64,000 bases of DNA from Alkalispirochaeta sp. (GCA_965242725.1 CBDESZ010000031.1:64001-128000), one strand, 5' to 3'. Counted from the stretch's first letter, positions 28,203-53,241 are shown. Numbers and translations are program-made. The notes: generated by a model not told the origin, from the sequence alone.

Positions 28203-28204
28203 GA

Positions 28205-29167: not shown

Positions 29168-29179
29168 GCGCTGCCGTCG

Positions 29180-29209
29180 GGCCGCCCGGAAGATCCCGGG
29201 CGGCCTTTT
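29180..29209 (+). terminator. intrinsic terminator
   Basis: GGCCGCCCGG-aagatc-CCGGGCGGCC followed by TTTT. Confidence 0.8.
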
Positions 29210-29240
29210 ACATTCCATCAAAATATGGTTTGCAAAATGA

Positions 29241-29278
29241 TGCAAACGATTGCAAAATGCTCGTTGTCGTAGTAGGAT
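29241..29278 (+). promoter_or_regulatory. promoter of the iolE-D-C-B-G operon with an overlapping LacI-type operator
   Basis: Palindrome TGCAAACGATTGCA (29241-29254) overlaps TTGCAA-17 bp-TAGGAT. Confidence 0.65.
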
Positions 29279-29298
29279 GACCTGAAAAGGAGAATCCA

Positions 29299-30195: not shown

Positions 30196-30205
30196 TAAGG
30201 GGTGA

Positions 30206-32074
30206 ATGATGGAAACGATGAGACTGACCGCGGGACAGGCACTGGTGAAGTTTCTTGATAATCAATACCTGCAGGTAGATGATCGGGAAATCAAGTTTGT
30301 CGAGGGTATATTTGGTATCTTTGGTCATGGCGTCGTCGTCGGCCTCGGGGAGGCGATCCAGGAGCCGAACCACAACCTGACCTTTTACCAGGGGCGAAAC
30401 GAACAGGGCATGGCTCACGCTGCGATGGCGTACGCCAAGCAGAACAATCGACATAAAATCATCGCCGTCACAAGTTCCATCGGACCGGGAGCGCTGAACA
30501 TGGTTACCGCCGCGGGAACGGCCACTTCCAACAGGATTCCGCTGCTCCTGTTGCCTGGAGATGCATTTGCGTGTCGGCAACCGGACCCGGTTCTTCAGCA
30601 AATAGAACAGAGTTATGACTATACCGTCACGGCCAACGATGCCTTCAAAGCGGTAAGCAAGTATTGGGATCGTATCGCCCGACCGGAACAACTCATGACT
30701 GCAGCGATAAATGCGATGCGCGTCCTGACGGACCCGGCGGAGACGGGTGCAGTCGTACTGGCCCTGCCTCAGGACGTACAGGGCGAAGCGTTTGATTATC
30801 CTGCCGATTTCTTTGCACGGCGGGTCCATCGCTTTTCCCGTCGGCCGCTCGCATCGGGTGAGGCGGAGGCGATTGCAGCCGTCATCGCCGGAAAAAAACG
30901 ACCCATGATAATCTGTGGAGGCGGTGTTCGGTATTCAGAGGCGGGCAATGCGCTGGCTTCTTTTGCAGAGGAATTTGGGATTCCCATCGGAGAAACTCAG
31001 GCCGGCAAGGGTGCTGTACGGTGGGACCACCCCCAGAATCTCGGCGGCCTTGGTGTAACGGGGACACTCGCCGCCAATCGGATTGCCCGTGAGGCAGATC
31101 TCATTCTCGCGGTAGGAACTCGTCTCAACGATTTTCACACCGCCAGCAAATCGGCGTTCCAGGCCCCGGGGGTTCAAATCGTAACGATCAATGTAAATGC
31201 TTTTGACGCATACAAGATGAACGCGGCCCCGTATATCGCCGATGCCCGTACCGCCTTGGAAGAGCTTGCGCCCGTTCTGCGAAGGAAAAAGTATGTTGCC
31301 TCCTACGGTGGTGACGTCGGCAAAGCCAAGGCAGCATGGAATGCCGAAGTCGATCGGCTTTTTGCCCTCGACGATACCGACGGGCTTACCCAGACACGGG
31401 TCATTGGAATGCTCGGCGACTTCATGAGTGAAGAAGATGTCATCGTTTCGGCATCCGGAAGTTTGCCGAGCGACCTTGAACGCCTGTGGCGTCCTGTTTC
31501 GCCGGACAATTACCATCTTGAGTATGGTTTTTCCTGTATGGGATACGAGGTGCCGGGGGCCTTGGGCGCAAAGCTCGCCGTGGGAAAGGATCGTGAAGTA
31601 TATACCCTCGTCGGAGACGGCGGATTCCTGATGCTCCATTCGGAACTGATCAGTGCCCTGCAGGAACAGCAGAAGATCACTATCGTTCTTGTTGACAATA
31701 TGGGATTTCATTGTATCGATAATCTACAGGGCTCAAAAGGAATACCTCATTTTGGGTGTGAATTTCGCTACCGGGATGAAACATCCAATACACTCAGCGG
31801 CGACGATATCGCGATTGACTATGCAATGGTCGCCAAAGGGTACGGATGCGACTCATTTTCCGCGCGCACTGCAAAGGAGCTCAAAGACGCGTTACATGAG
31901 GCGCGTAAAAGCATCCGTCCAGTTCTGATCGACGTAAAGACGGTAAAAAAATCGATGACCGACGGATACGAAGCGTGGTGGCGCGTCGGAATCCCTGAGG
32001 TTTCCAATAAAAAAGAGGTAGTAGAGGCGTACGAGGAGCAGCAGGAGATGCTCAAGAAGGTAAGGCTCTACTGA
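30206..32074 (+). CDS. iolD: 3D-(3,5/4)-trihydroxycyclohexane-1,2-dione acylhydrolase
   Basis: IFGHG, NEQGMAH, PDPVLQQ, YHLEYGFSCMGYE, ThDP motif GDGG..N, WWRVG. Confidence 0.93.
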   Translation: MMETMRLTAGQALVKFLDNQYLQVDDREIKFVEGIFGIFGHGVVVGLGEAIQEPNHNLTFYQGRNEQGMAHAAMAYAKQNNRHKIIAVTSSIGPGALNMVTAAGTATSNRIPLLLLPGDAFACRQPDPVLQQIEQSYDYTVTANDAFKAVSKYWDRIARPEQLMTAAINAMRVLTDPAETGAVVLALPQDVQGEAFDYPADFFARRVHRFSRRPLASGEAEAIAAVIAGKKRPMIICGGGVRYSEAGNALASFAEEFGIPIGETQAGKGAVRWDHPQNLGGLGVTGTLAANRIAREADLILAVGTRLNDFHTASKSAFQAPGVQIVTINVNAFDAYKMNAAPYIADARTALEELAPVLRRKKYVASYGGDVGKAKAAWNAEVDRLFALDDTDGLTQTRVIGMLGDFMSEEDVIVSASGSLPSDLERLWRPVSPDNYHLEYGFSCMGYEVPGALGAKLAVGKDREVYTLVGDGGFLMLHSELISALQEQQKITIVLVDNMGFHCIDNLQGSKGIPHFGCEFRYRDETSNTLSGDDIAIDYAMVAKGYGCDSFSARTAKELKDALHEARKSIRPVLIDVKTVKKSMTDGYEAWWRVGIPEVSNKKEVVEAYEEQQEMLKKVRLY

Positions 32075-32075
32075 G

Positions 32076-33092
32076 ATGGCCTCATTTCCGCTGGCCGTTC
32101 CGTCCGGGCGGACACGCGACTGTGTCACCTTTGGAAGGGCCAACATGGACCTCTATACCCAGAGTGGTCGCTCCATAGAGGAAACGCCGGTATTTGCCAA
32201 ATCGGTCGGCGGTACTCCTGCGAATATCGCCGCGGCGATGGCGCGTCTCGGCATGAAAGTGGGTATGATTACCCGCGCCGCCGCCGATCCCATCGGCCGT
32301 TTTGTCGTTGAGTCGCTGCAGCGGCTGGGTGTCGATACGTCGCACATCGTCTTTGATCACAGCGGCGCCCGCACGAGCATCGCCTTTGCCGAGACGCGGA
32401 GCGCCGGTTCAAATACGGTTCTCTACCGGAATAACGCGGCCGATCTTCTCGTTAACCCGACGGACATTGATGCAGAGTATATCCGGTCAACGGCGATGCT
32501 CCTCCTTTCCGGTACGGCGTTATCTGAGTCCCCGTCGCGGGACGCAGCGATGCTCGCGGTAGGCATTGCCCGGAAAGCCGGAACGCTTATTGCACTGGAT
32601 ATTGACTTCAGACCCTACTCGTGGCGCAACCGCGAGTCGGCGTCGGTTGCCCTCATGTTTGCGGCGGAATCCTGCGACATCGTGATCGGTACCAGGGAGG
32701 AGTTTGACGTACTGGAACTGGTCTACGGAAATGACGCTATCGCCGACAGAGACCGGGACGCCTTAACCGCGCGGCGCCTGATTGAGGCCGGAAACTCCGT
32801 CGTCGTCGTGAAACGGGGAGAGGATGGATCCACCGCATACACTGCAACGGGCAGGACGGTACAAGGACCGGTGTTTCCCGTCGTCCCGGCAAAGGTGTAC
32901 GGAGCCGGAGACGCCTTTGCAGGCGCGTTGCTCGCACGTCTCCTAGTTGGTGCTGAACTCGACGAGGCTTTGACGGCGGGAGCGGCAAACGCTTCAATAA
33001 ATATTTCCAGAACCCGGTGCGCCGAAGATATGGCCACATGGGAAGAACTTGTACAATTCATCAAGGAGAAGAACTATGCCGTATCACATTAG
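32076..33092 (+). CDS. iolC: 5-dehydro-2-deoxygluconokinase (PfkB family, single domain)
   Basis: GRANMDLY, VGGTPANIA, DIDFRPYSW, GAGDAF. Confidence 0.9.
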   Translation: MASFPLAVPSGRTRDCVTFGRANMDLYTQSGRSIEETPVFAKSVGGTPANIAAAMARLGMKVGMITRAAADPIGRFVVESLQRLGVDTSHIVFDHSGARTSIAFAETRSAGSNTVLYRNNAADLLVNPTDIDAEYIRSTAMLLLSGTALSESPSRDAAMLAVGIARKAGTLIALDIDFRPYSWRNRESASVALMFAAESCDIVIGTREEFDVLELVYGNDAIADRDRDALTARRLIEAGNSVVVVKRGEDGSTAYTATGRTVQGPVFPVVPAKVYGAGDAFAGALLARLLVGAELDEALTAGAANASINISRTRCAEDMATWEELVQFIKEKNYAVSH

Positions 33093-33921
33093 GCCTTATA
33101 ACAATGAGAACAGGCCGGTTATCGATGTAGACAACAACTGGACGCCCCTGATCTATTTCAACGACATACGTCTTGCTTCGGGTATGTCCTATTCCCATCG
33201 CCTGGAAGAACACGAGTCTGTCTGTGTGGTTGTATCGGGTACGGTACATATAGAGGTTGAAGGCGTCAGATTTGAAAGTGTGGGAAAGAGGGAACATCTC
33301 TGGGCCGGCAAGCCTGATTCGGTATATGTACCGCCCGGGTTCAAAGCGACAATCACCGCGGCGGGTGACGGCGCCGAGGTCTTCGTTGCCGGCGGGCAAA
33401 CGGGAGGTGGCAAAGAACCATTTCGGGTTACACCTGATGATGTCGATACCGTCCAATATGGAAGCGACGACACCAAGACGCACCGTCGTATTTACCACAT
33501 CCTCGGAAAAAACGTTGAAGGGCACACGGGGAACCTTCTTGTAAGTGAGCTTTTTACCGTCGGAGCGGGAGGGTGGTCGGGATTTCCGCCGCACAAGCAT
33601 CACATCGAACGACCGCCGGTGGAAAGCGATTTTGAGGAGGCATTTCACTACCGCTTTAACCCTGATCACGGATTCGGTGCGCAGTTTGCGTATATCGGCG
33701 ATGACGATTTCGGGCCTGTATACCATGTAAAACACGGGAGTACCATTCTGCTTGATAAGAGTTACCATCCCTCCGTTGCAGCGCCGGGCTATGAGATGTA
33801 CTACTTTACGATCCTTGCGGGACGTAACCGACGCTCCCTGATTCAATATTTCCACCCCGATCATGAGTACCAGGTCCATACCATCCCGGGGCTCAAAGAC
33901 ATGATCGCAAAGTTCAAGTAG
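33076..33921 (+). CDS. iolB: 5-deoxy-glucuronate isomerase
   Basis: KduI/IolB cupin motifs WSGFPPHKH, EE..HYRF.P..GFG, YHP.VAAPGY. Confidence 0.88.
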   Translation: MPYHIRPYNNENRPVIDVDNNWTPLIYFNDIRLASGMSYSHRLEEHESVCVVVSGTVHIEVEGVRFESVGKREHLWAGKPDSVYVPPGFKATITAAGDGAEVFVAGGQTGGGKEPFRVTPDDVDTVQYGSDDTKTHRRIYHILGKNVEGHTGNLLVSELFTVGAGGWSGFPPHKHHIERPPVESDFEEAFHYRFNPDHGFGAQFAYIGDDDFGPVYHVKHGSTILLDKSYHPSVAAPGYEMYYFTILAGRNRRSLIQYFHPDHEYQVHTIPGLKDMIAKFK

Positions 33922-33937
33922 TAAAGGAGACAACGAT

Positions 33938-34951
33938 ATGCAGGAAGTCAGACTCGGAATCGTCGGCCTCGGTCGACTGGGCAAACGGCACGCGGAAAAC
34001 CTGCGTTATCGCGTACCGGGAGCACAACTCGTTGCGGCGTGTAGCGTCGTACCTGATGAACTCGATTGGGCGAGAACCAAACTGGGTGTGAAAAAGACTT
34101 ACGATTCCTACGACGAAATGCTCGGCGACGATGAGGTTGATGCGGTCTTTCTCGTCTCTACCTCGAGCGTCCATGCAGAGCAGATTATGGCGGGACTCGC
34201 GGCGGGAAAACACGTTTTTTCGGAAAAACCGATGGGCGTCACTATCGAGGAGTGCCTCGAAGTGGAACGGGCCGTCGCCTCGGCTCCCGAGCTCCATTTC
34301 CAGCTCGGTTTTGTCCGCCGCTTTGATCCGAGCCTCGCATACGCCAAGCAAAAGATTGACGAGGGCGCTATCGGTGAACCCTTCCTCGTTCGGGCCCAAA
34401 CGGTCGATACAGATGAATTTGCTGAGTTTCAGATAAAATTTGTACCCACATCGGGCGGAATCTTCATGGACATGAACTCCCACGACATCGATCTTGCGCG
34501 CTGGTTCATCGGGGCGGAAATAAAGAGCGTCTACGCGATTGGCGGGAGCTATGTGCATCGAGGTTTTGCAGAGGTGAACGACGCGGACAACACCGTTGCG
34601 CTCTGCCGGTTTGAAGACGGGAAGATGGCCGTCATTTCGGCGAGCCGTACCGCGTTTCACGGCCACGATACGCACACCGAGATAACCGGTTCCAAAGGAA
34701 TTCTCAAGATCGGTATGACCCCTTCAAAAAATCGCGTGGAAATATTTGATACTGAAGGCGCGCGTGTCGAGTGCGTCCAGGACTTTTTTGAACGATTTCA
34801 CGAGGGGTTCCTTCTGGAAGCGCAGAGTTTTGTAAGCGGAATCATGAACGGAGTCAAGCCCTCGATTTTTGCGACCGACGGGACAAAGGCGACGGAAGTG
34901 GGGTTTGCCCTGACAAAATCATTCAAGGAGAACAGGGTCGTCGAATTGTGA
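33938..34951 (+). CDS. iolG: inositol 2-dehydrogenase-like oxidoreductase
   Basis: GLGRLG, SEKP, GFVRRFD, SGGIFMDM..HDID. Confidence 0.8.
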   Translation: MQEVRLGIVGLGRLGKRHAENLRYRVPGAQLVAACSVVPDELDWARTKLGVKKTYDSYDEMLGDDEVDAVFLVSTSSVHAEQIMAGLAAGKHVFSEKPMGVTIEECLEVERAVASAPELHFQLGFVRRFDPSLAYAKQKIDEGAIGEPFLVRAQTVDTDEFAEFQIKFVPTSGGIFMDMNSHDIDLARWFIGAEIKSVYAIGGSYVHRGFAEVNDADNTVALCRFEDGKMAVISASRTAFHGHDTHTEITGSKGILKIGMTPSKNRVEIFDTEGARVECVQDFFERFHEGFLLEAQSFVSGIMNGVKPSIFATDGTKATEVGFALTKSFKENRVVEL

Positions 34952-35979
34952 CACTGAAAGATATTGCACAACTCGCAGGAACCAGTGTTGCCACCGTATC
35001 GCGCAGTCTGAATGACAGCCATCTTGTCGCGGATGAGACGAGGCGAAGAATCAAGGCAATAGCGGCAGAACATGGCTTCGAGTTCAATGCAAGTGCCCGC
35101 GGCCTCGTTACGAGAACGACCGGTACGATCGGCGTTATTCTCCCTGAGAACTACGACCGATTTGATGTATTGCTCTACCATGCGGCGCTGCATAACGATT
35201 TCCGGATGAGTCTGGAACGGGCAGATAAGGATATGATTGTCGCGTTTCTGACGAATCGTTTCAGCGGGCTTCGGAACGTTGAAAAACTCGTTATGCGCAA
35301 GAAAGTAGACGGGCTGATTATCGTTCAGTCGGCCATTGATCAGGAGACGGTGCGGTATCTCAGGCGACGGAACGTACCGTTCGTCATGACCCAGTATCCT
35401 CCCGCCGAACCGGATCCGGACTACGACGTGGTCTATTCCGACAACTGGACGGGGGGCAAGCTGGTTGCCGACCACTTTATTGAACGAGGCTTTTCCTCAT
35501 GTGCATGTATCACCGGCGGTGACGAGGCGCAGTCACGGCAGCGTCTCGCCGGCTTTCTGGACACCATGTCCGCCCACGGAATCACCGTTCCCGATGACCT
35601 GATTCTGACCGGAGACTTTCAGAGCGATACGGCGGTACGTCTGGTCAGAGAACATCTCGACAAACTACAGGGAGTTGAGGCACTTTTTGCGGTCAATGAT
35701 CTTATGGCGTTTGGCGCGATGCAGATACTGCAGGCGTCGGGGCGGCGCGTACCCGACGACATCGCCGTCGTCGGGTATGACGATACGCCCCTCGCGGAAA
35801 TCACGTTACCCGGTCTTACCTCTGTTCACCAGTCCCGGGAGGAGATCGCGTTACTCGCGTGTCAGCTCCTCCTTGAGCGCGTCGAGGAGTATGTGGACGA
35901 ACCTGCCCGGTATCACGAGCACCGGGCGATTGCGATCCAGCCGCGCCTGATCGTCCGGGAAAGCTCGCACGGACGATAA
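34948..35979 (+). CDS. LacI-family transcriptional regulator
   Basis: TLKDIAQLAGTSVATVSRSLN, VPDDIAVVGYDD, LTSVHQ. Confidence 0.93.
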   Translation: MTLKDIAQLAGTSVATVSRSLNDSHLVADETRRRIKAIAAEHGFEFNASARGLVTRTTGTIGVILPENYDRFDVLLYHAALHNDFRMSLERADKDMIVAFLTNRFSGLRNVEKLVMRKKVDGLIIVQSAIDQETVRYLRRRNVPFVMTQYPPAEPDPDYDVVYSDNWTGGKLVADHFIERGFSSCACITGGDEAQSRQRLAGFLDTMSAHGITVPDDLILTGDFQSDTAVRLVREHLDKLQGVEALFAVNDLMAFGAMQILQASGRRVPDDIAVVGYDDTPLAEITLPGLTSVHQSREEIALLACQLLLERVEEYVDEPARYHEHRAIAIQPRLIVRESSHGR

Positions 35980-36016: not shown

Positions 36017-36982
36017 TCATAGATTTGCCTCCGACAGGGCGGCCAGACCGGATGCGGTTAATCCGTTCTCCTTGAGGAGGAATGCGTGGTCGCCCAGTTT
36101 CTGGAACTTGTCGCCCAGACTTGCCATGACCTGTCGGGGTGCATTGGAGAAACCCGCCTTGTACTCGGCGACTGCGCTGCCGAGTCCACCTATGGGTGAG
36201 TGCTCCTCAACCGTTACAACGAGCCTGTTTTCCGCAAATACGGAATCGAGCATGTCGGTATCCAGAGGTTTTACCGTGTGCATATCGATTACACGTGTCG
36301 AAATACCCCTGGACTCAAGGATCTCCGCCGCGCCGACGGATTCAGACAGGAGAGAGCCGCAGGAGATCAACGCGACATCGGTACCCTTTCGGTATTCGAT
36401 AGCTCTTCCTATTTGAAAATCAAAATCGTCCTGGTACATCACCGGAAAGCCGGGTCCTCCGGTCAGTCGGATATATACCGGTCCATCGTGATCGGCGGCG
36501 GCACGTAACGCTTTGTGAACCGTCAGCGGATCAGACGGCGCAATGACGGTAAAGTTGGGAATTGCCCGGGTCACAGCTATGTCATCCATCGCATAGTGTG
36601 TATTGCCAAGAGGGCCGAAGCGGACACCCGCCTCAATCGAGACAACTGTGGCTTTCAGATTCATATAGGCGAGGGTGTCCCGCATCTGCTCGGCAGTGCG
36701 CATAGGCACGATCGCCGCGAGGGCAACGGCAAACGGCAGTATTCCCTCGACGGCGAGGCCCGCGGAAAAATCGATAAGGTTTTGCTCTGCGATACCGACG
36801 TCAAAAAACCGATCAGGATAGGTGTCTCTGAATCCGGTGAGTCTGGCGGTAGGGGTGAGGTCGGCCGTTACGGTGACCATTTCCGGCCGTTCAGCGGCGA
36901 GCATCACCAGGGTGTCGCCCAATACATTTCGATGGCCCAGGCGGGACCACTCCTGCAGTTGTTCTGCAGACACCTTTGTCAT
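36017..36982 (-). CDS. split transketolase, C-terminal (pyrimidine-binding) subunit
   Basis: DVGIAEQN, GNTHYAMDD, PVYIRL, HTVKPLD, EEHS..GGLGS. Confidence 0.9.
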   Translation of the reverse strand: MTKVSAEQLQEWSRLGHRNVLGDTLVMLAAERPEMVTVTADLTPTARLTGFRDTYPDRFFDVGIAEQNLIDFSAGLAVEGILPFAVALAAIVPMRTAEQMRDTLAYMNLKATVVSIEAGVRFGPLGNTHYAMDDIAVTRAIPNFTVIAPSDPLTVHKALRAAADHDGPVYIRLTGGPGFPVMYQDDFDFQIGRAIEYRKGTDVALISCGSLLSESVGAAEILESRGISTRVIDMHTVKPLDTDMLDSVFAENRLVVTVEEHSPIGGLGSAVAEYKAGFSNAPRQVMASLGDKFQKLGDHAFLLKENGLTASGLAALSEANL

Positions 36983-36998
36983 AGCAGCTTCTCGGCCG

Positions 36999-37835
36999 TC
37001 ATTCATCGTTGAGCTCCTTCATCGCCGTCTCGTAAAATTCTTTTGGTAATGATCGGGCATGCCATTCCAGGCTGTCCTCCATAAAGGAGATTCCTTTACC
37101 TTTTGTGGTGTCGGCGATAATCACACGGGGTTTTTCACTTACTGCGTCTCTCATTTTCCTGAGAGCATCGATAACGTCGGACACCGAGTTTCCATGGCGT
37201 ACTACCAGAACATCCCAACCGGCTGCGCCCCAGAGCGCCTCGATATCGATGTTCATGATTTCCTTTGTCTTACCGGCCAGTTGAACACCATTGCGGTCAA
37301 CGATCGCTACCAGGTTGTTCAGCTCATTCTTTGCGGCGTTCATCGCCGACTCCCAGACGAGGCCCTCGTTGCATTCTCCGTCGCCGACAAGACAAAAGAT
37401 GTTGTGCGTTTCACCTTTCATCTTCGCCGCTTTTGCCATTCCGCAGGCGACGGAAAATCCGTGTCCCAGAGATCCGGAGGAGATTTCGATACCGTATTGC
37501 ACGTTGCGGCTCGGGTGTCCTGATAGAAAACTGCCGTCGGCCTTAAAGGTGTACATTTGCTCCCTGGTGATATATCCGCTTTCCACCAGTGCGCTGTAGT
37601 AGGAAAGACATGCGTGTCCTTTGCTTTGGACAAACCGATCCCGTTGCGGCCACCGGGGATTCCCGGGATCGTGGTTCATAATGCCAAAAAAAAGTCCGGC
37701 TACAATCTCAATACTGGAGAGGGCGGGTCCAAAATGGGCTCCCCGGTCGCCGGCGACGTAGCCCATTTCAATGACGTTCCGACGCATCTTCCGTGTAATG
37801 TCTTCAATCCGTGTAATCGTCGCTTGATCGACCAT
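36999..37835 (-). CDS. split transketolase, N-terminal (ThDP-binding) subunit
   Basis: AHFG..LS, DRFVQSKGHA, GHP, GSLGHG, GDGECNEG..N, TTKGKG, WH. Confidence 0.92.
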   Translation of the reverse strand: MVDQATITRIEDITRKMRRNVIEMGYVAGDRGAHFGPALSSIEIVAGLFFGIMNHDPGNPRWPQRDRFVQSKGHACLSYYSALVESGYITREQMYTFKADGSFLSGHPSRNVQYGIEISSGSLGHGFSVACGMAKAAKMKGETHNIFCLVGDGECNEGLVWESAMNAAKNELNNLVAIVDRNGVQLAGKTKEIMNIDIEALWGAAGWDVLVVRHGNSVSDVIDALRKMRDAVSEKPRVIIADTTKGKGISFMEDSLEWHARSLPKEFYETAMKELNDE

Positions 37836-37857
37836 TATATGATTCTCCTTGTTTCGT

Positions 37858-38748
37858 TTATCTTTGTTCCGCAATGGTGTAGAGATGCCCGCTGTAACGT
37901 CCCATTGGTATCACTCTGGCTTGTTCCCGGGCGAGTTCAATCAACCGGGGGACAGCCACCCCTGTGGTGTAGCCCATTTCCGACAACATGAATGCGAGGT
38001 CTTCTGTCGCCAGGTTTCCCGACGCACCTGGCGCAAAGGGACATCCTCCCAGCCCGCCTAATGTGGACTGGACCTTTCGGACGCCCCGTTCAATTGCGGC
38101 GAGGGTATTGACCATTCCCATGTTGCGGGTGTCGTGAATATGAATCTGGAGATCCAATGACGGGTACTCCGCCTGGAGTGCGTCGATCGTTTCTCGCACC
38201 TGGGCGGGGTTTGCGATGCCGATCGTGTCGCAGAGCGTTACCGACGTGATCCCGCTTTGCACGTACGGCTTAAGAAAGGGTATGACGTCTTCAGGACCCT
38301 TTTTCCCTTCAAAGGGACAACCGAATGAGGTCGCCAGGTCGAGTCCGACCTCGAGATCGGGGAGGGTGTCCCGTATCCCCGACAGTTCCGCGAAGGATTC
38401 CCCATGGAATCGCCGGGTATTGGCGCGATTATGACTTTCACTGACGGATACGACAAAGGAAACCCATCTCATGCCCGAATCCCACGCCGCCTGTGCTCCC
38501 CGCAAGTTGGGAACCAGGGCAAACAGGTCGGCATCGGGATATTTTTCGATACATCTTTCCGTCAGCTCCCGGGCGTCTTTCATCTGGGGAACGGCCCTGG
38601 GGCTCACAAAGGAGGTGATTTGAAGATGTTTCAATCCGGAGGCGATCAGCCCGTCGATTATGCGAAGCTTGGTTTCCAGTGGAATGTATTCATCAACGTT
38701 CTGGAATCCGTCGCGGGGTCCGACTTCATAGAGTTCGACCGTCTTCAT
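37858..38748 (-). CDS. HMG-CoA lyase family protein
   Basis: EVGPRDGFQN, SFVSP..VPQM, FGCPFEG, DTIG, HIHDTR, GLGGCPFAPGASGN. Confidence 0.92.
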   Translation of the reverse strand: MKTVELYEVGPRDGFQNVDEYIPLETKLRIIDGLIASGLKHLQITSFVSPRAVPQMKDARELTERCIEKYPDADLFALVPNLRGAQAAWDSGMRWVSFVVSVSESHNRANTRRFHGESFAELSGIRDTLPDLEVGLDLATSFGCPFEGKKGPEDVIPFLKPYVQSGITSVTLCDTIGIANPAQVRETIDALQAEYPSLDLQIHIHDTRNMGMVNTLAAIERGVRKVQSTLGGLGGCPFAPGASGNLATEDLAFMLSEMGYTTGVAVPRLIELAREQARVIPMGRYSGHLYTIAEQR

Positions 38749-40210
38749 TCCGTTTCTCCATCATCGATCCACTCTCCTTGAGTCTCCGGTACCAGGCAAA
38801 GGCTTCTTCCGGAAGCTGTGGGTGGTGGCCGCCACAGTGTCGGCGGGCATTCTGAAGGTACGACGACAATTGATCGCGGTACGAGTCGGAAGCACATCGT
38901 GCAATAATCGCGTCCGATCGCTCGTGGTCATCCAGGCCGCGCAGATCCGCCACGCCATTCTCGGTTACGACGATATCGACGTCGTGCTCACCGATATCCT
39001 GGTGGGATACCATGGGCACGATATTGGAAATCGCACCGCCTTTTGCCGTGGAGGGAATGAGAATTACCGAGAGAGCTGCGTTCCGGGCAAAGCCCGCTCC
39101 GCCGCCGATGCCGTTCACCACCCGGCTGCCGGCGATATGACTCGAGTTTACGTTCCCATAGATATCAATTTCGATACCGGTATTAAGGGCAACCACGCCG
39201 AGGCGACCGACGACCTCCGCACTGTTGGTGATATCGCCATTGCGAATTACAAGGTGGTTGTGAATTTCCGGTATGTCCCGGAGGATTTCTTCAACCCGTT
39301 CGCTCATTCCCAGCCCACCGGTAGAAAGGGCGGTTGCCTTTCCCGACGCCAGAAGTTCCATAACCGGCTCAGTAATTCCGCCACAGAAAAATTGCAGGTC
39401 ATGGAACGCCGATTGACGGAAGGCATCGACAACGGAATCGGCGATACTCCCGAAACCGGTCTGAATCGGCGGAAGGGTATTGCCGAGATTCCGGTATTCT
39501 CCTTCCAGGAAGGTGAAGAGATGATCGGCGATACGCTTTGTGAGGGAAGTACCCTTCGGGGGCGTTCCCAGGCGTTCCGGTATGTTGGTTTCCACGACAT
39601 GGGAAATCCGGTTCCAATCAACCGGAATTCCACCGCTGCCGATGCGCTCATTGACTCGGGTAAGAGGAATCGGCCTGGTGTACGGCGGTGCCAGGGGAAT
39701 GTACACGTCATGTAACGATTTGAGCTTCTTCGGCTGTGCCGCATTTATTTCGACGATAATCTCATCCGCCGCCGCGGTGAGGTAGTGCGTCATGCCGACG
39801 GAGCTGGTCGGGATCAGGTTGTTCTCGTCGTCAAAGCCCAGGGCTTCGACGACGGCGATATCTATTCTGCCGAAGTTGCCGTCCCGGAGCATTCGCGGCA
39901 TGTTACACATCTGCTGCTCCACGTACCGCACCGATCCTCTGTTTGTCTGAGACGCCAGTGTCTTGTCGGCGACCATCGGCGTCCGTCGTGCGATAATTTC
40001 CGCCGCGGCGAGTTTTTCATCGAGCCAGGGTACGTTGGCACCGGTAAGGAGATTGATAGACAGCTCTTCTCCCCCCTTTTTTCGTGCCGTCAGTTCCTCC
40101 ACAACTGCTTTTGGATAACCGGCCATGGCGTAACCACTCATCGCGACGGTCATTCCGCTTCGGATGGTTGCGACGGCCTCCTGTGCGGTCGAAATATCTA
40201 TATTCCTCAT
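38726..40210 (-). CDS. acetyl-CoA hydrolase/transferase (AarC-like fold) protein with atypical active site
   Basis: GYPK, PIQTG.G, EIDIYGNVNSSH, NGIGG, IVPMVSH.D..EHDVDIVVTENG.ADLRGL. Confidence 0.85.
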   Translation of the reverse strand: MRNIDISTAQEAVATIRSGMTVAMSGYAMAGYPKAVVEELTARKKGGEELSINLLTGANVPWLDEKLAAAEIIARRTPMVADKTLASQTNRGSVRYVEQQMCNMPRMLRDGNFGRIDIAVVEALGFDDENNLIPTSSVGMTHYLTAAADEIIVEINAAQPKKLKSLHDVYIPLAPPYTRPIPLTRVNERIGSGGIPVDWNRISHVVETNIPERLGTPPKGTSLTKRIADHLFTFLEGEYRNLGNTLPPIQTGFGSIADSVVDAFRQSAFHDLQFFCGGITEPVMELLASGKATALSTGGLGMSERVEEILRDIPEIHNHLVIRNGDITNSAEVVGRLGVVALNTGIEIDIYGNVNSSHIAGSRVVNGIGGGAGFARNAALSVILIPSTAKGGAISNIVPMVSHQDIGEHDVDIVVTENGVADLRGLDDHERSDAIIARCASDSYRDQLSSYLQNARRHCGGHHPQLPEEAFAWYRRLKESGSMMEKRNEDGRTL

Positions 40211-40230
40211 GGGTACCCTTGGACGATTTC

Positions 40231-41643
40231 TCACGACCGCGGCGTGAACCCGGAGAACAGCTCTTCATCCGATGGTTCGTGGTTGGGTATTTCCCGGATG
40301 ACCCATGTATTGTTCATGTAATGTTTGAGAGCAATGTTCTCCGACGCGATGTTTCCGCCCCAGGTGCCGCAACCAAGGGAACTGGTAAAGGGCATTCCGC
40401 TGACCCAACTCCCCGTATTGGTCGCGCCCTGGGGCAGGTTCACGACGACACGAGTGGTATAGGTTCTTTCTGCGACTTTCGTCACGTTCTCCGTGGTATT
40501 GGAAAATATTCCGCACGAGTGGCCGGCCCCTGAAGAGGCGTGATTCTCGTTTATTATTCGTATTGCATCGTCGATTCCCGTGCTTTTGTAGACAGTCGTG
40601 ACGAGACTCATTTTTTCTCCGGCAAACGGAGTTGAATCGCCGGTAACGTCCTCTTCGACCAGCAGAAACGATGTCCCTTCGGGAACGTCAATACCTGCAA
40701 TTTCCGCGATATTCCTGACCGACGATGCGACGATATCGCGATTTATGACGCGACTATCAGGCCACTCGGGCCAGATTGCCTTTTTCAGTTTTTCTTTTTC
40801 ATCCGAATTCAGGAGGTGGGCGCCGACCTTTTTAAACTCACCGAGCATGTCGGTGTACACTGATTCGTCGATGACGACGCTGTTATCGCATGAACAACCG
40901 GCGGCGAGGTCAAATGTCTTGCTGATCTTGATCTTGGCCGCAGCATCTGCGAGGTCCGCCGTCCGGTCAACCACGATGACGGAATTGCCGGCACCGACTC
41001 CGAATGCGGGTGTGCCTGAGCTGTAGGCGGCACGGACCATCTGGGCACCGCCCGTCGCCATAACCAAATCACACTGTTTCATGAGTTCGCCGGTTATCGG
41101 GACCGAAGGTTCTTTGATGGTTATGAACAGATCTTCCGGAGCGTCATACTTTTTCATCACGCCTCGAATGAGGTCAACGGTCTTGGTGGCGGTACCTTTG
41201 CTTCGCGGATGCGGTGAGAAGATTATGGCATCACGGGCCTTTACGGCAAATATCGCCTGTATGAGAGGATGCATCTCCGCCTGGGTACTTGGAACAAGTG
41301 AACCTATCACTCCCACCGGTTTTGTCAGTCTGACGAGTCCGCGCTCGGGTATCTCTTCTACAATGCCGACCGTCCTGACGTTCTTCACATCGTAAAAGAC
41401 GCCGCGACATTTCACGGAGACCTTGGTGAATTTTGACTGAACGTCACCGAGCCGACACTCCTCATAGGAGTACTCGGCAAGCTCCCTGACCAAGTTATCG
41501 TTGGCCGCAATTTCCCAGGTGATGGCTGCGGCAAGTTCATCCACCTTTGCCTGTGAGAATGTTTCAGCAATACGTTGCGCCTTCCGTGCCCGTTTCATCA
41601 ACGCCGATACTATTGCCGCAGCGTCTGCTCGGTTTTGTTCCAT
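40231..41643 (-). CDS. CoA-acylating aldehyde dehydrogenase (SucD/SauS/EutE-like), copy 1
   Basis: KPVGVIG, SPHP, ATGG..MV.AAYSSG.PA.GVGAGN, KTFD....C, EKMS, GH, LGCGTWG.N. Confidence 0.88.
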   Translation of the reverse strand: MEQNRADAAAIVSALMKRARKAQRIAETFSQAKVDELAAAITWEIAANDNLVRELAEYSYEECRLGDVQSKFTKVSVKCRGVFYDVKNVRTVGIVEEIPERGLVRLTKPVGVIGSLVPSTQAEMHPLIQAIFAVKARDAIIFSPHPRSKGTATKTVDLIRGVMKKYDAPEDLFITIKEPSVPITGELMKQCDLVMATGGAQMVRAAYSSGTPAFGVGAGNSVIVVDRTADLADAAAKIKISKTFDLAAGCSCDNSVVIDESVYTDMLGEFKKVGAHLLNSDEKEKLKKAIWPEWPDSRVINRDIVASSVRNIAEIAGIDVPEGTSFLLVEEDVTGDSTPFAGEKMSLVTTVYKSTGIDDAIRIINENHASSGAGHSCGIFSNTTENVTKVAERTYTTRVVVNLPQGATNTGSWVSGMPFTSSLGCGTWGGNIASENIALKHYMNNTWVIREIPNHEPSDEELFSGFTPRS

Positions 41644-41680
41644 TTCTGCCTCCAACTTCCGTAAAGTACGAATTATGAAA

Positions 41681-41751
41681 TTTCGTTCGAAGCGATATAG
41701 GCATCATATAGCTTTCTATCGGAATAGTAAAGTTTCGATTATATTTCGATT
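41681..41751. promoter_or_regulatory. candidate DeoR-family operator array (TTTCG repeats)
   Basis: TTTCGTT at 41681, and TTTCGATT at 41733 and 41744 (11-bp period), in the AT-rich divergent region. Confidence 0.5.
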
Positions 41752-41787
41752 GAAGAATATTAGGTTATGTTGTATCGTGTATATGCT

Positions 41788-42558
41788 ATGAAAGCTCAAT
41801 CGATGAACCGGGTCGAAGAGATCAGGACCCTTTTAAAGAGAAACGGTAAGGTCTATGTCGCGGACCTGAGCGCAGAGTTGGGTGTGAGCGAAGTATCAAT
41901 ACGGAAGTATCTGTCCAGAATTGAACGGGAAGGGTTTGCAACACGATTTTATGGGGGTGCGGCGCTGAAAGATCCCGCTCCCGCAAACAACGCCTTGCAG
42001 GAAATCTACGATGATCCAATTCGAACGGCCCTTGCCCGGGCAGCACGTAACCATGTTGTAGACGGTGATTCCATATTTGTCGGTTCCGGTAGGTCGTGTT
42101 GCGCCCTGGCCCACGAGCTGACCGGGTTTACCGACCTGACCGTATTCACAAACAATATTACTGCCCTTCCGGAGCTTATTACCAACGCCTCACGGGTATA
42201 TCTGATCGGCGGGGAAGTCACCAGCACCGACAATCATACTTTGTTTTCGAGCTGGGAGTCGCCGCACGCACAAATGGAAAATATCTTCGTAAACAAGGCG
42301 TTTACAAGTGTGTCCGGAATTGACCTGAAAGCGGGACTGACCGTTGATTCCGTTATCAGCACCCGTATTTTCAAACAGATACCCACGATGGCGCATCGCT
42401 GGTATTTGATTGCCGATGTAAAAAAGTTTGACAAGATTTCGATTTATCCCGTCGCGGAGCTCGAACAAATACACACATTAATCACCGACACACTCCCGGA
42501 CCACTATGCAGAAAGACTTCGTGCGATTCGCGTCGAAATCGTTCAAAGTCCACGGTAG
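41788..42558 (+). CDS. DeoR/GlpR-family transcriptional regulator
   Basis: V.DLS..LGVSEVSIRKYL, R.YGGA, GDSIF..SG, VFTN, LIGG. Confidence 0.9.
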   Translation: MKAQSMNRVEEIRTLLKRNGKVYVADLSAELGVSEVSIRKYLSRIEREGFATRFYGGAALKDPAPANNALQEIYDDPIRTALARAARNHVVDGDSIFVGSGRSCCALAHELTGFTDLTVFTNNITALPELITNASRVYLIGGEVTSTDNHTLFSSWESPHAQMENIFVNKAFTSVSGIDLKAGLTVDSVISTRIFKQIPTMAHRWYLIADVKKFDKISIYPVAELEQIHTLITDTLPDHYAERLRAIRVEIVQSPR

Positions 42559-42571: not shown

Positions 42572-42618
42572 TTGACAGCTCCAGATTCCATGGATACAAT
42601 GTTCTTATTATCAGACAA
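42572..42618 (+). promoter_or_regulatory. sigma70 promoter of iolB2-iolD2 with operator-like motif near +1
   Basis: TTGACA (42572)-17 bp-TACAAT (42595), then TTATTATCAGACAA (42605-42618). Confidence 0.8.
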
Positions 42619-42659: not shown

Positions 42660-43514
42660 GTGATCATACGGAGGAATGGGGAACCCTTTTCCCTTGGATA
42701 TACTTCAATAACCGAGTTGGACGGGAAAAACGGCGACATGCTCATGGACTTTGGTATTCTCAAACTCGCCGGCGGCGAATCCGTTTCCAGCGATGACCAA
42801 AAAGAACGGGCTTTCCTGTTAATGACCGGGAATGTCCGTTTTCAATGGAGCGACCCCGACGGACATCAGTCGGTTCAGATTACACGGAACAGCGTCCTCG
42901 ATGAAGAGCCGACAGCCTTGCACGTGCCTGCGGGTGCCGACGTGACGGTGACGTGTATCGACGGGGAGGCAGAGATCGCGATACAGAAAGTCAAGAACTC
43001 CAAATCCTTCGCGCCCCGTCTCTGGCGTCCCGGAGACTACCGTTCAGACCGTTTTGGTGAAGGAACGCTTCAGGACACGAGCACCCGTACCGTTCGGACG
43101 ATATTTGACGCTGCGACTGCACCGGAAAGTGAAATGGTGCTGGGTGAAGTGATAAACCATCCCGGCAAGTGGTCCAGTTATCCGCCCCACGACCACGCCC
43201 AGCCGGAAGTGTATCACTATCGGTTTTTTCCGAGTCATGGATGGGGCCACGCCGAGCAGGAAGATGATGTCTTTAAAGTCAAAAACGGCGACAGTTATGC
43301 TATTCCGCCAGGTGTGACCCATTCGCAGTGTGCCGCTCCGGGATATACAATGTACTATATCTGGATGATTCCGCACCTTCCCGACGACCGTTTTGGTCCC
43401 GACTCGCGGATTTTTCGCAAGGAACACATGTGGGTTATGGATGGGGACGCTCCGATTTGGCCGGATGCGCCTCTCGAGACGGTTCTTGCGTATCAAACGA
43501 ATCTTAAACGATAA
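42660..43514 (+). CDS. iolB: 5-deoxy-glucuronate isomerase, second and divergent copy
   Basis: R.VRTIFD, LGEV...PG.WSSYPPH.H, EVYHYRF.P..G, H.QCAAPGY.MYYIW. Confidence 0.85.
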   Translation: MIIRRNGEPFSLGYTSITELDGKNGDMLMDFGILKLAGGESVSSDDQKERAFLLMTGNVRFQWSDPDGHQSVQITRNSVLDEEPTALHVPAGADVTVTCIDGEAEIAIQKVKNSKSFAPRLWRPGDYRSDRFGEGTLQDTSTRTVRTIFDAATAPESEMVLGEVINHPGKWSSYPPHDHAQPEVYHYRFFPSHGWGHAEQEDDVFKVKNGDSYAIPPGVTHSQCAAPGYTMYYIWMIPHLPDDRFGPDSRIFRKEHMWVMDGDAPIWPDAPLETVLAYQTNLKR

Positions 43515-43535: not shown

Positions 43536-45443
43536 GTGAAGGTGAAAACGGTACGATTGACGACCGCACAGGCGTTATTACGCTTTCTGGATAATCAGTA
43601 TATCGAGGTTGACGGCGAAGAGACCAAATTTGTCGAAGGTATTTTCGGGATATTTGGCCATGGTAATGTCGTCGGCTTTGGCGAAGCAATTGTCGAGACA
43701 GAGCATAATTTGATATTCCGCCAGGGAAAGAATGAGCAGGCTATGGCGCACGCTGCCATTGGGTTTGCAAAGCAGAATAATCGGCGAAAAATCTATGCGG
43801 TTACCAGTTCGGTTGGTCCCGGTGCCTTGAATATGGTGACCGCCGCAGGGACCGCGACGGTGAATCGAATACCGGTCCTCTTTCTTCCCGGCGACACATA
43901 CGCGGACCGACAGCCTGATCCGGTTCTTCAACAGGTAGAGCATGGGAACAATCCCAATATCACGGCGAATGATGCGTTTCAGGCGGTGAGTACCTATTGG
44001 GACCGCGTATCCCGTCCTGAACAACTCATGAGTTCTCTGATTAACGCCATGCGTGTACTGACCGACCCGGCGGAAACCGGCGCGGTGACGATCGGCCTTC
44101 CTCAGGATGCCCAAGCGGAAAGTTACGACTATCCTGAAGAATTCTTCCGAAAACGCGTTCACCATGTCGAGAGGCGCCCGCTGACCGACAATGCGATCCA
44201 GCGGGCGGCGGAACTCATTGGAGCAAGCAGGAAGCCAATTATGGTCTGCGGCGGCGGTGTTCGCTACTCCGAAGCCGGCGATGTGTTTGCGGCGTTTGCG
44301 GAGGAGTTTGGTCTTCCTTTCGGTGAAACTCAGGCGGGGAAGGGCACCGTATCGTGGGATCATCCGTGGAATCTTGGTGGTATCGGCGTTACCGGCGGCG
44401 AGGCCGCCAATGTGATTGCGAAGGACGCCGATCTTCTTATAGCCGTGGGTACCCGTCTCGGTGATTTTACCACGGCAAGTAAGGGAGCTTTTCAGAACTC
44501 AGATTTAAAAGTGCTCACTATCAATGCAAATAGATTTGACTCATATAAGATGGATGCAGAACCATTTGTGGCCGACGCCCGTATGGCGTTGACGCAGCTC
44601 GCTGAAGCCCTGAGGCACAAGAAGTACACCAGCGGATATTCCGATGAAGTACGCAAGGTTCGTGAAGCATGGAACGCTGAAGTCGACCGTCTCTATACAA
44701 CGGATGATCCCGGTGGACTGAGTCAGACCCGCGTTCTGGGAGAGTTGAACGAGAAATTGCTGAATCCGGACGATGTGGTCGTCAGTGCTTCGGGCAGCCT
44801 TCCCGGAGACATGCAGCGCGTCTGGCGGCCTCGCCAACGCGATACCTATCATATGGAGTACGGTTTCAGTTGCATGGGATATGAGGTAAATGCCGCATAC
44901 GGCGCCCAGATCGCAGCCCCCGACCGGAATGTGTACGCTCTTGTCGGCGACGGCGGATTTGTCATGCTGCACAGTGAATTACTCTCCGCGGTTCAGGAGG
45001 GCATTCCATTTACCATTATCCTCTTTGACAACCATGGCTTTCAGGTTATCGATAACCTGCAAACCAACCAGGGAATATCCAGTTATGCCAATGAGTGGCG
45101 GAAACGGACCACCGATGCGGTGAAATCGACAGTTCCACCCTACGGAGGGCACGATAGAAAGCTTCTGGGCGAGTATCTGGAAGTTGATTACGCCGGAATC
45201 GCGGCAGGATATGGTGCCATCGGCATCACGGTTCGAACAATTGAAGAGCTTGCCGAAGCGATCAGGTCAACCCGAAACGTCGGACGACCGGTGTTGATTG
45301 ATGTGAAAGTCACACAGAAATCGATGACTCACGGCTACGAAAGCTGGTGGCGCGTCGGCGTACCGGAAGTATCGGCAAGTACCAAGGTTCAGGAAGCCCG
45401 CAAGGACCTGGACGACCATATGGAGACCGCCCGGAAGTTCTGA
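43536..45443 (+). CDS. iolD: 3D-(3,5/4)-trihydroxycyclohexane-1,2-dione acylhydrolase, second copy
   Basis: IFGHGN, PDPVLQQ, YHMEYGFSCMGYE, GDGG, WWRVG. Collinear with 30206. Confidence 0.93.
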   Translation: MKVKTVRLTTAQALLRFLDNQYIEVDGEETKFVEGIFGIFGHGNVVGFGEAIVETEHNLIFRQGKNEQAMAHAAIGFAKQNNRRKIYAVTSSVGPGALNMVTAAGTATVNRIPVLFLPGDTYADRQPDPVLQQVEHGNNPNITANDAFQAVSTYWDRVSRPEQLMSSLINAMRVLTDPAETGAVTIGLPQDAQAESYDYPEEFFRKRVHHVERRPLTDNAIQRAAELIGASRKPIMVCGGGVRYSEAGDVFAAFAEEFGLPFGETQAGKGTVSWDHPWNLGGIGVTGGEAANVIAKDADLLIAVGTRLGDFTTASKGAFQNSDLKVLTINANRFDSYKMDAEPFVADARMALTQLAEALRHKKYTSGYSDEVRKVREAWNAEVDRLYTTDDPGGLSQTRVLGELNEKLLNPDDVVVSASGSLPGDMQRVWRPRQRDTYHMEYGFSCMGYEVNAAYGAQIAAPDRNVYALVGDGGFVMLHSELLSAVQEGIPFTIILFDNHGFQVIDNLQTNQGISSYANEWRKRTTDAVKSTVPPYGGHDRKLLGEYLEVDYAGIAAGYGAIGITVRTIEELAEAIRSTRNVGRPVLIDVKVTQKSMTHGYESWWRVGVPEVSASTKVQEARKDLDDHMETARKF

Positions 45444-47083: not shown

Positions 47084-47161
47084 ACTCCTCAATAACACGC
47101 GCGCGACCGGCTGCCGATGGCGACAAATCGCGAGCGTTCATAATCCTATTGCGTTATCCGG

Positions 47162-48404: not shown

Positions 48405-48444
48405 CAGACCGTTCGAAAAAACCAGTCTAAGGTCTCGTTGAGGA

Positions 48445-50779: not shown

Positions 50780-50842
50780 AGTTACCTTCTCTCCCTTGTT
50801 AAGTATTGCTCGATTGCCCTGTCAACGGCCCGCGCCGGGAAG

Positions 50843-53210: not shown

Positions 53211-53241
53211 GTTCCTCCTGTGTGCTTCAATTGCGCCAATT

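Follow-up and report, generated by a model that had tools for sequence, protein, structure and literature searches.

A 64,000-nucleotide stretch of an Alkalispirochaeta sp. genome (GCA_965242725.1, CBDESZ010000031.1:64001-128000; hereafter the window) carries at positions 36017-41643 a compact five-gene cassette encoding a CoA-acylating aldehyde dehydrogenase (ALDH1), a class I CoA-transferase, a lyase of the 3-hydroxy-3-methylglutaryl-CoA (HMG-CoA) lyase family (HMGL) and the two subunits of a split transketolase (TK). We find that this cassette is conserved as a whole and closely associated with inositol genes, and the encoded enzymes probably form an inositol-linked transketolase route running through a four-carbon hydroxy-dicarboxylyl-CoA. 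The enzyme families involved are ordinary; what is unusual is their combination, its connection with inositol and the D-malyl-CoA chemistry proposed here.

In soil, sediment and guts, inositols and the breakdown products of phytate are plentiful sources of carbon. Canonical myo-inositol catabolism of the Bacillus subtilis type is carried out by IolG, IolE, IolD, IolB, IolC, IolJ and IolA, a route that requires ATP, an aldolase and IolA. Like that pathway, the window encodes IolG, an IolE-like protein, two IolD proteins, two IolB-family proteins and IolC. Unlike it, neither IolJ nor IolA was found in the window's genome (34 contigs, 91.8% complete), where the TK/ALDH/CoA-transferase/lyase cassette and a transaldolase/ALDH pair are present instead. 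The best methylmalonate-semialdehyde dehydrogenase match in the whole genome reaches 327 bits on TIGR01722, below the cut-off of 448.5. No DUF2090 protein was found genome-wide, the only class II aldolase sits on another contig with none linked to iol genes, and tblastn returned no match in this genome to the operon-encoded IolJ-like aldolase of one relative (locus L037, below).

Organization of the cassette

The five genes all lie on the minus strand and form one operon. In the order of transcription, they encode ALDH1 (40231-41643; EutE/SucD/SauS type), identified by profile and structure matches; the CoA-transferase (38726-40234; ScpC/Cat1/AarC type, succinyl-CoA:acetate-like), identified by Pfam, NCBIfam and structural relatives; HMGL (37858-38748), assigned to its family by Pfam, NCBIfam and motif alignment and proposed to be a D-malyl-CoA lyase; the thiamine diphosphate (ThDP)-binding TK N subunit (TK-N, 36999-37874), identified by Pfam and NCBIfam; and the TK C subunit (TK-C, 36017-37006). 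By their open reading frame coordinates, successive genes overlap by 4, 23, 17 and 8 bases. The ALDH1 reading frame as called runs from 40231 to 41655, and inspection of start sites points to the ATG at 41643, with GGAGG just 5' of it, as the likely start.

A preliminary description of the window had reported five tightly packed, co-oriented genes ending at 41643, placed between two iolB/iolD sets, with no recognizable iolJ or iolA. Pfam and NCBIfam give the genes the same names, the likely ALDH1 start falls on the same base, profile matches show iol genes on both flanks, and the absence of iolJ and iolA extends to the whole 91.8%-complete assembly.

Upstream of ALDH1, a divergent control region of 123 bases (41644-41766) contains a minus-strand promoter-like site (41731-41703) and repeated TTTCG(A) words, both of which are consensus matches only. 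On its far side lies a DeoR-family regulator (41767-42558, plus strand; Pfam/NCBIfam) that probably controls the cassette operon. DeoR homologues of at least 30% identity adjoin the cassette in 13 of 42 loci.

Conservation and linkage to inositol genes

With the HMGL protein as query, 124 relatives were retrieved from contigs representing one genome per species, and 80 loci (L-numbered; 55-79% identity) were kept with flanks of 10 kb on either side, many of which end at contig ends. Half of these loci (40/80) have all five cassette genes with order and strand unchanged, an arrangement that is not a matter of chance. Three further cassette loci are cut by contig ends, 11 carry the ALDH, CoA-transferase and HMGL genes without TK, and the remaining 26 have the lyase alone. 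Judged by record titles, the cassette occurs in Spirochaetes, Acidimicrobiia, Gemmatimonadales, Clostridia and Anaerolineae, spanning at least five phyla.

The preliminary description had proposed looking for co-occurrence of the cassette with iolB and iolD, and the association is strong. Of the 43 cassette genomes, 38 have an IolD above the curated cut-off, versus 1 of 37 genomes with a lyase homologue but no TK; among the five cassette genomes below the cut-off, two have a partial or broken IolD and the three that lack IolD are small drafts. A KduI/IolB-family gene is present in 41/43 cassette genomes. At the level of the fetched flanks, IolD and/or IolB lie beside 18/42 cassette loci versus 0/37 loci without TK. 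In two phyla the cassette and the genes for IolB, IolD and IolE even share operons; IolB or IolD/IolE stand directly upstream and in one operon with it at L033, L036, L037, L045, L080 and L083.

The later enzymes of the canonical pathway are far less regular companions. IolA exceeds its cut-off in only 9/43 cassette genomes (absent from 34), IolC is found in 21/43 and lies near the cassette in six loci, and eight cassette genomes lack IolC, transaldolase and IolA all at once. IolN (12/43) and UxaE (11/43) are likewise much rarer than IolD. The bypass of IolC, IolJ and IolA envisaged in the preliminary description is supported in part: neither IolJ nor IolA was found in the genome, but IolC is encoded in the window and in or near cassette operons elsewhere, which makes a bypass of IolC too simple a description of the cassette. 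We also considered a scheme in which DKG (2-deoxy-5-keto-D-gluconate, the IolB product) phosphorylated by IolC feeds the cassette, and rejected it because IolC is absent from 22/43 cassette genomes; a ketose 1-phosphate is moreover not a TK donor.

As a separate observation, Sphaerochaeta-type loci carry a Cytidylate_kin2-family P-loop protein between a sugar ABC transporter/IolG and either the cassette or a glyceraldehyde-3-phosphate dehydrogenase gene (L043 6248-6931, and L021, L047, L048, L051, L054, L115 and L133). It could represent an unrecognized kinase step and has no homologue in the window.

A transketolase with a rebuilt substrate pocket

The window TK and 41 orthologues were aligned with Escherichia coli TktA and with the two ordinary TKs of the window's genome, using residue numbers checked on E. 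coli tktA. Catalytic and ThDP/Mg-binding residues (H26, H66, H100, H261, E411, H473, the GDG motif and N185) are kept in 42/42 cassette TKs; the window's TK-N retains its share of them (H26, H66, H100, H261, GDG and N185). The part of the pocket that holds the substrate tail is rebuilt, again in 42/42: R358 is kept, S385 is replaced by T, H461 by E, D469 by L and R520 by G, A, D or S. Cassette TKs also carry Y or F at Q474, and 40/42 have a new arginine at position 465. TK-C of the window keeps R358 and reads S385T, H461E, G465R, D469L and R520G, and the genome's two ordinary TKs retain the E. coli pocket residues. Complete catalytic residues in a rebuilt pocket point to a functional transketolase fitted to a substrate that is not a sugar phosphate.

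A parallel is found in the sulfofructose transketolases, in which RSFHR is replaced by RAFDR, so that the same histidine is exchanged for an acid (PMC11659671, section 3.4). Unlike the enzymes described in that section, cassette TKs do not carry RAFDR; their motif is R-T-(L/I/M)-E-(G/A/D/S), read as R-T-x-E-G with the new R465 in the cassette TK set against RAFDR. The best solved relative of TK-N and TK-C is the split TK 6yaj.

Family assignments of ALDH1, the CoA-transferase and the lyase

On the SauS model NF047625, ALDH1 reaches 459 bits against a cut-off of 600, and is thus related to that family without being a member; among solved structures, AdhE ALDH domains and the acylating succinate-semialdehyde dehydrogenase 8cei match it best. 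The CoA-transferase has 486 bits on NF053853 (ScpC; cut-off 500) and 496 bits on TIGR03458 (cut-off 658.7), and the structures nearest to it are 2g39 and Acetobacter AarC (4eu3). As the nearest enzymes to both proteins act on succinate semialdehyde and succinyl-CoA, a hydroxylated C4 skeleton, that is malyl, would be the simplest fit. Moving CoA between the two ends of a C4 or C5 dicarboxylate is a known idea, realized in the mesaconyl-CoA C1-C4 CoA-transferase; that enzyme belongs to family III, whereas the cassette transferase is of class I.

HMGL scores 252 bits on NF004283, above the cut-off of 246 for this HMG-CoA lyase subfamily, and its PRDG, HxH and GGCP motifs, which we take to be the catalytic motifs of HMG-CoA lyases, align with those of the solved enzymes 6nds and 1ydo. 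The (R)-citramalyl-CoA lyase of Chloroflexus also belongs to the HMGL family. With these lyases the cassette enzyme shares the fold, the catalytic motifs and the reaction type, in which a 3-hydroxy-dicarboxylyl-CoA is split to acetyl-CoA and an oxo-acid; it would differ from them in its proposed substrate, D-malyl-CoA, and product, glyoxylate. A C-methyl-inositol substrate, which would lead to citramalyl-CoA, was considered, and no evidence for it was found.

A proposed route from DKG to acetyl-CoA and glyoxylate

In the route that we propose, IolD and IolB would yield DKG, a D-threo ketose that bears a carboxylate. The cassette TK would then move the two-carbon ketol unit of DKG onto glyceraldehyde-3-phosphate (GAP), giving xylulose-5-phosphate and D-malate semialdehyde (3-hydroxy-4-oxobutanoate), a product that we infer from the structure of DKG and established TK chemistry. 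ALDH1 would oxidize this aldehyde to the C1 thioester 1-malyl-CoA, conserving the energy of the oxidation. An acylating ALDH places CoA beside the hydroxyl carbon, where a Claisen-type lyase cannot cleave, which would explain why a transferase is always present: the Cat1/ScpC-type enzyme would move CoA to the other carboxylate, either directly via free malate or via acetate and acetyl-CoA. HMGL would finally split the resulting 3-hydroxyacyl-CoA, 4-malyl-CoA, into acetyl-CoA and glyoxylate. Neither malate synthase nor phosphoketolase was found in the window's genome, and because malate synthase is missing, glyoxylate would probably be reduced to glycolate. At least nine D-2-hydroxyacid dehydrogenase paralogues are encoded in the genome, none of them linked to the locus. 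As a complete order of steps, from DKG through malate semialdehyde, 1-malyl-CoA and 4-malyl-CoA to acetyl-CoA and glyoxylate, the scheme is tentative, and we regard it as nearly evenly balanced with a slight lean toward doubt.

A close precedent is the sulfo-TK route of sulfoquinovose catabolism, in which an anionic ketose without a phosphate group is the donor and GAP the acceptor of the split TK SqwGH, and SqwD serves as an acylating sulfoacetaldehyde dehydrogenase; in Faecalicatena this becomes a bifurcated sulfo-TK/sulfo-transaldolase pathway (PMC11659671). The preliminary description's account of this chemistry agrees with the introduction of that paper. Judged by its genes, the route proposed here would likewise pair a split TK, acting on an anionic ketose with GAP, with an acylating ALDH that conserves energy. 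As in the bifurcated pathway outlined there, candidate TK and transaldolase branches stand side by side, and in both systems the phosphate-binding histidine has given way to an acidic residue. Relative to the sulfo-TK pathway as introduced in that source, the anion here would be a carboxylate and not a sulfonate, no second TK round and no CoA ligase would be involved, and the CoA-transferase and lyase would instead break the C4 skeleton.

The carnitine catabolism of Acinetobacter baumannii offers a second point of comparison, as the same D-configured 3-hydroxy-4-oxobutanoate proposed here is an intermediate there, and it shows that cells require dedicated enzymes for the D-malate skeleton (PMC11353897). 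In that pathway the aldehyde is oxidized to free D-malate, which is then decarboxylated, whereas a CoA route to acetyl-CoA and glyoxylate is proposed here; a solution of the carnitine type, with D-malate dehydrogenases, does appear in the second TK operon of a relative, described next. Full-text literature searches, with most subscription journals outside their coverage, turned up no transketolase or transaldolase route for inositol and no D-malyl-CoA lyase.

A second transketolase operon in close relatives

Protein identities between the window and its closest relative are mostly 67-87% across the locus. In that relative (L128 7506-14001), the DeoR-iolB2-iolD2 operon continues with a second TK (TK2), a type II (archaeal-type) phosphorylating glyceraldehyde-3-phosphate dehydrogenase (GAPDH; 416 bits, cut-off 185), a phosphoglycerate kinase (PGK)-family protein, two tartrate/D-malate dehydrogenases (472 and 491 bits on the tartrate dehydrogenase model, cut-off 470) and a GFO gene. 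In L010 and L038, the two closest relatives, this second split TK comes immediately behind iolD2 and has the exact R-A-F-D-R motif. The GAPDH/PGK pair is linked to iol genes in 26/43 cassette genomes, most of which have orthologues of 64-96% identity, and it often adjoins IolD, IolE or IolB (further loci are L112, L115 and L129-L138). No close orthologue of GAPDH/PGK or of the tartrate dehydrogenases was found in the window's genome, where identity is at most 38%.

Tartrate dehydrogenases also decarboxylate D-malate. Given a TK with RAFDR, a GAPDH/PGK pair, tartrate dehydrogenases and the isosterism of malate semialdehyde with GAP, a C4 D-hydroxy-acid downstream is the natural reading of this operon, which lends support to the four-carbon hydroxy-acid logic proposed for the cassette. 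The GAPDH/PGK pair may convert malate semialdehyde to D-malate by way of an acyl phosphate, yielding ATP, or may simply consist of plain glycolytic enzymes. Conversion of malic semialdehyde to D-malate and on to pyruvate is proven in carnitine catabolism (PMC11353897).

A transaldolase/ALDH2 pair as a candidate second branch

Right after iolD2, on the opposite strand, the window carries a divergent transaldolase recognized by a profile match (47162-48250, minus strand), with a perfect sigma-70-like site at 48361-48334, and its partner ALDH2, a second acylating ALDH (45695-47098, minus strand; 542 bits on the SauS model NF047625 against the cut-off of 600, so again related and not a member). 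Orthologues of the transaldolase (50-83% identity) are present in 16/43 cassette genomes, and the pair is seen in 6/12 fetched stretches. In several of these stretches it is joined to iol operons, with the orders IolB-IolD-transaldolase-ALDH2 (L113), transaldolase-IolD-IolE-IolG (L114) and IolB-x-transaldolase-ALDH2 (L106); operons of the IolB-IolD-transaldolase-ALDH2 type exist in Anaerolineae.

The pair is a candidate for a second kinase-free branch, in which DKG and GAP would give fructose-6-phosphate and malonate semialdehyde, the latter being converted to malonyl-CoA. Sulfoacetaldehyde is isosteric with malonate semialdehyde, and the SauS-like character of ALDH2 would fit activity on that aldehyde. 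With an iol-linked transaldolase/ALDH2 pair in the window, the cassette is not the only candidate for a lower route. The most far-reaching interpretation is a kinase-free, two-armed lower inositol pathway acting on DKG, comprising a TK arm (with a class I CoA shift, the first natural D-malyl-CoA lyase of the HMGL family and glyoxylate as internal electron sink) and a transaldolase arm (with fructose-6-phosphate, and malonate semialdehyde going to malonyl-CoA). Such a pathway is possible, and we hold it to be doubtful as a whole.

Two further features touch the transaldolase. A decayed carboxyltransferase gene (48442-49170, plus strand) retains Carboxyl_trans positions 196-324 and continues in two other frames, its N-terminal part being gone; it could be what is left of an acyl-CoA (malonyl-CoA?) decarboxylase or carboxylase next to the transaldolase pair. 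Elsewhere in the same genome, a second cluster (C11:43090-49905; L127 9087-15905) contains a GntR regulator, a three-subunit molybdenum hydroxylase (FAD, 2Fe-2S and molybdenum cofactor subunits), a fused divergent transketolase of 708 amino acids and a transaldolase, a paralogue that is 57% identical to the transaldolase of the window.

ALDH-transferase-lyase modules without transketolase

In the 11 loci that lack TK, the ALDH-transferase-lyase module is accompanied by an iron-dependent alcohol dehydrogenase (Fe-ADH; nine loci) or a GMC oxidoreductase, by TRAP or MFS transporters and by a LacI regulator, with a D-2-hydroxyacid dehydrogenase in addition at L050, L055 and L065. Across the survey, genes resembling D-2-hydroxyacid dehydrogenases or glyoxylate reductases lie beside the module in eight loci (L023, L024, L031, L033, L050, L055, L065 and L071). 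The TK-less module could be a pathway for an omega-hydroxy acid, with 3,4-dihydroxybutyrate as one candidate substrate. Its three enzyme families are those of the Clostridium kluyveri set Cat1-SucD-4Hbd, which consists of succinyl-CoA:acetate CoA-transferase, acylating succinate-semialdehyde dehydrogenase and Fe-ADH; unlike that set, the module would run in the oxidative direction on a hydroxylated skeleton and has an added lyase. Oxidation of mevalonate to HMG-CoA by the TK-less module was weighed as an alternative role and set aside, as it misfits the TK product and leaves the always-present CoA-transferase without a role; for the TK-less loci themselves it stays a possible function.

L066 has the same TRAP binding protein (63% identity), the same lyase and an Fe-ADH, but its ALDH is non-acylating and its CoA-transferase belongs to family III. 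A family III CoA-transferase and a dicarboxylate transporter also accompany the lyase in loci of Sedimentibacter, Anaerotignum and Clostridioides. These contexts, in which an aldehyde-acid or dicarboxylate would be converted to a dicarboxylyl-CoA, suggest that the lyase substrate is a dicarboxylyl-CoA made from an aldehyde-acid; taken with the structural relatives of ALDH1 and the transferase, they speak for a C4 dicarboxylyl-CoA as the substrate of the cassette lyase.

The TK-less modules (L039, L044, L050, L055-L058, L063, L065, L025 and L019) come from Bacillota and other groups, with MIP transport also represented, and L050 is from a cultured strain. Lyase homologues of 57-60% identity at L067, L070, L089 (Clostridioides difficile) and L066 stand with a sigma-54 PrpR-type activator, a DASS/CitMHS dicarboxylate transporter and a family III CoA-transferase, a set that looks like an unstudied hydroxy-dicarboxylate catabolic unit.

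Weighing the proposed route against alternatives

Several observations weigh against the proposed DKG-to-glyoxylate route. Within the TK pocket, loss of H461 and R520 removes two phosphate ligands for the presumed acceptor GAP and for xylulose-5-phosphate, and D469, which binds a hydroxyl still present in DKG, is replaced by leucine, as would suit a donor that is shorter or lacks this hydroxyl; without D469 and R520 there is room for a shorter donor. In the closest relatives, the sulfo-TK-like TK2 after iolD2, and not the cassette TK, may be the enzyme that acts on DKG, and the iol-linked GAPDH/PGK pair could oxidize the same aldehyde, in which case ALDH1 would be redundant or have another substrate. 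IolC lies in or right beside the cassette operon in five Clostridial loci (L036, L037, L046, L080 and L083), one of which, L037, also encodes an IolJ-like aldolase, and the proposed route needs neither. At its far end, HMGL scores as an HMG-CoA lyase, with no examined sequence feature proving specificity for malyl-CoA; we know of no precedent for a CoA shift by a class I transferase; and the evidence for glyoxylate as the product consists of the reductase-like neighbors in eight loci and the missing malate synthase. The co-occurrence counts, finally, ignore shared ancestry; since the cassette occurs in five phyla, phylogeny alone is unlikely to account for them.

Alternatives with another donor or another order of steps were weighed. 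The TK might act on D-fructuronate or a 5-keto-hexonate from an IolM/N/O-UxaE branch, giving tartrate semialdehyde, then tartryl-CoA and finally glycolyl-CoA and glyoxylate. The preliminary description had named such an IolMNO-derived donor as its alternative, and in its favor genes for IolN/IolO/IolM-like proteins, IolG and UxaE adjoin DeoR and the cassette at L015 and L013, IolN/IolO lie nearby at L028, the window's own IolN and IolO exceed their cut-offs, and the tartrate dehydrogenases of the relative would suit tartrate as well. The cassette nevertheless tracks the IolD/IolB branch (38/43 and 41/43) and not IolN or UxaE, the window's IolM-like gene is split in two reading frames, and the always-conserved CoA-transferase would have no necessary role, so that we think this donor unlikely. 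Running the cassette in its gene order ALDH-transferase-HMGL-TK as the order of reactions is improbable to a greater degree: ALDH1 would act on 5-deoxy-glucuronate, CoA would be shifted to the C6 carboxylate, the lyase would free acetyl-CoA, and the remaining C4 aldehyde-acid would be isomerized to a keto-acid from which TK would make glyoxylate and a ketol unit. A pocket without distal phosphate ligands and D469 would suit so short a donor; yet this order requires an extra isomerase that is not in the cassette and makes IolB needless, although IolB stands directly upstream of ALDH1 in several operons and is present in 41/43 genomes.

Other alternatives keep the inositol link and reassign ALDH1, or drop the link altogether. 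If another enzyme, such as the GAPDH/PGK pair of the relatives, oxidized the TK product to free D-malate, the transferase would form D-malyl-CoA, the lyase would release acetyl-CoA and glyoxylate, and ALDH1 would act last, turning glyoxylate into oxalyl-CoA as the CoA donor. The iol-linked GAPDH/PGK of 26/43 cassette genomes would then complement ALDH1 rather than duplicate it, the HMGL-only loci that pair the lyase with a dicarboxylate transporter and CoA-transferase do without an ALDH, and ALDH1 comes from a group that takes small anionic aldehydes (SauS-like). With its close orthologues of GAPDH/PGK and tartrate dehydrogenase missing (identity no more than 38%), the window's own genome would, however, have no source of D-malate; the five-gene cassette would not be self-sufficient, yet it travels as a unit; and oxalate as an end product means more NADH in fermenters and clashes with the glyoxylate-reductase-like neighbors. 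We judge this order quite unlikely. A cassette that replaces IolA, disposing of malonate semialdehyde formed by IolC and an aldolase or by transaldolase, would account for the sharing of cassette operons by IolC (and at L037 the IolJ-like protein) while IolA is absent, and for a SauS-like ALDH1, malonate semialdehyde being isosteric with sulfoacetaldehyde. It is very unlikely, for we find no sensible role on malonyl-CoA for TK, transferase or lyase, eight cassette genomes have neither IolC nor transaldolase, and the window has a separate ALDH2 paired with its transaldolase. The possibility that HMGL is a true HMG-CoA lyase or belongs to some other sugar-acid pathway, its iol placement being coincidental, would agree with its score above the HMG-CoA-lyase subfamily cut-off and with the 24/42 cassette loci that show no IolB or IolD within the fetched 10-kb flanks. 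Many of those flanks end at contig ends, IolD separates the genomes 38/43 versus 1/37, and operons are shared with IolB, IolD and IolE in two phyla; coincidence is hardly credible. We retain the inositol-linked TK route through a hydroxy-dicarboxylyl-CoA as the likely function of the cassette.

Flanking genes in the window

Cluster 1 of iol genes (27210-35979, plus strand; profile matches) converges on the cassette operon and comprises iolG, an AP_endonuc_2 gene, an iolE-like gene, iolD1 (911 bits on TIGR04377, cut-off 715), iolC (32076-33092; 334 bits on TIGR04382, cut-off 300), iolB1, an iolG-like gene and a LacI regulator gene, with no iolJ. The closest relative has a class II aldolase gene between iolB1 and the iolG-like gene (L010 ~14950-15800) that is missing from the window (32076-33921), where these two genes are only 16 bases apart and IolC is retained. 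On the other side, beyond DeoR, a divergent IolB-like isomerase of the KduI/IolB family (42660-43514, plus strand) has a KduI/IolB Pfam match and only 90 bits on TIGR04378; a promoter-like site at 42572-42600, matching 11/12 consensus positions, precedes it. It is followed by IolD2, a ring-opening ThDP hydrolase (43536-45443, plus strand; 899 bits on TIGR04377, cut-off 715).

A Thermotoga-type oxidative branch (4678-8880, plus strand) encodes an IolM-like protein, an IolG-like protein, IolN (276 bits, cut-off 245) and IolO (315 bits, cut-off 300). IolN and IolO are intact, and the IolM-like Zn-dehydrogenase is spread over the overlapping reading frames 4678-5196 and 5090-5743, indicating a frameshift or assembly error. 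Downstream, a polyol-type cluster (49718-54687, minus strand) contains a Zn-dependent alcohol dehydrogenase, an SDR protein, a mannitol-dehydrogenase-family protein and an FGGY kinase; genes for an ABC sugar transporter and a ROK regulator come next.

Conclusions

In conclusion, many anaerobes possess IolD and IolB without IolA, and genome-based predictions consequently call their inositol pathway incomplete. If the proposed reading is true, a TK/CoA route would close this gap, the predicted products would become xylulose-5-phosphate, acetyl-CoA and either glyoxylate or glycolate, and four well-known enzyme families would gain new activities. As a compact five-gene unit, the cassette is directly testable by reconstitution. 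The logic of sulfoquinovose catabolism, in which TK or transaldolase acts on an unphosphorylated anionic ketose, would then be a general solution, and if the two-armed reading also holds, together with the GAPDH/PGK/tartrate-dehydrogenase variant of the relatives, bacteria would have arrived at several independent solutions to the "D-malate semialdehyde problem".

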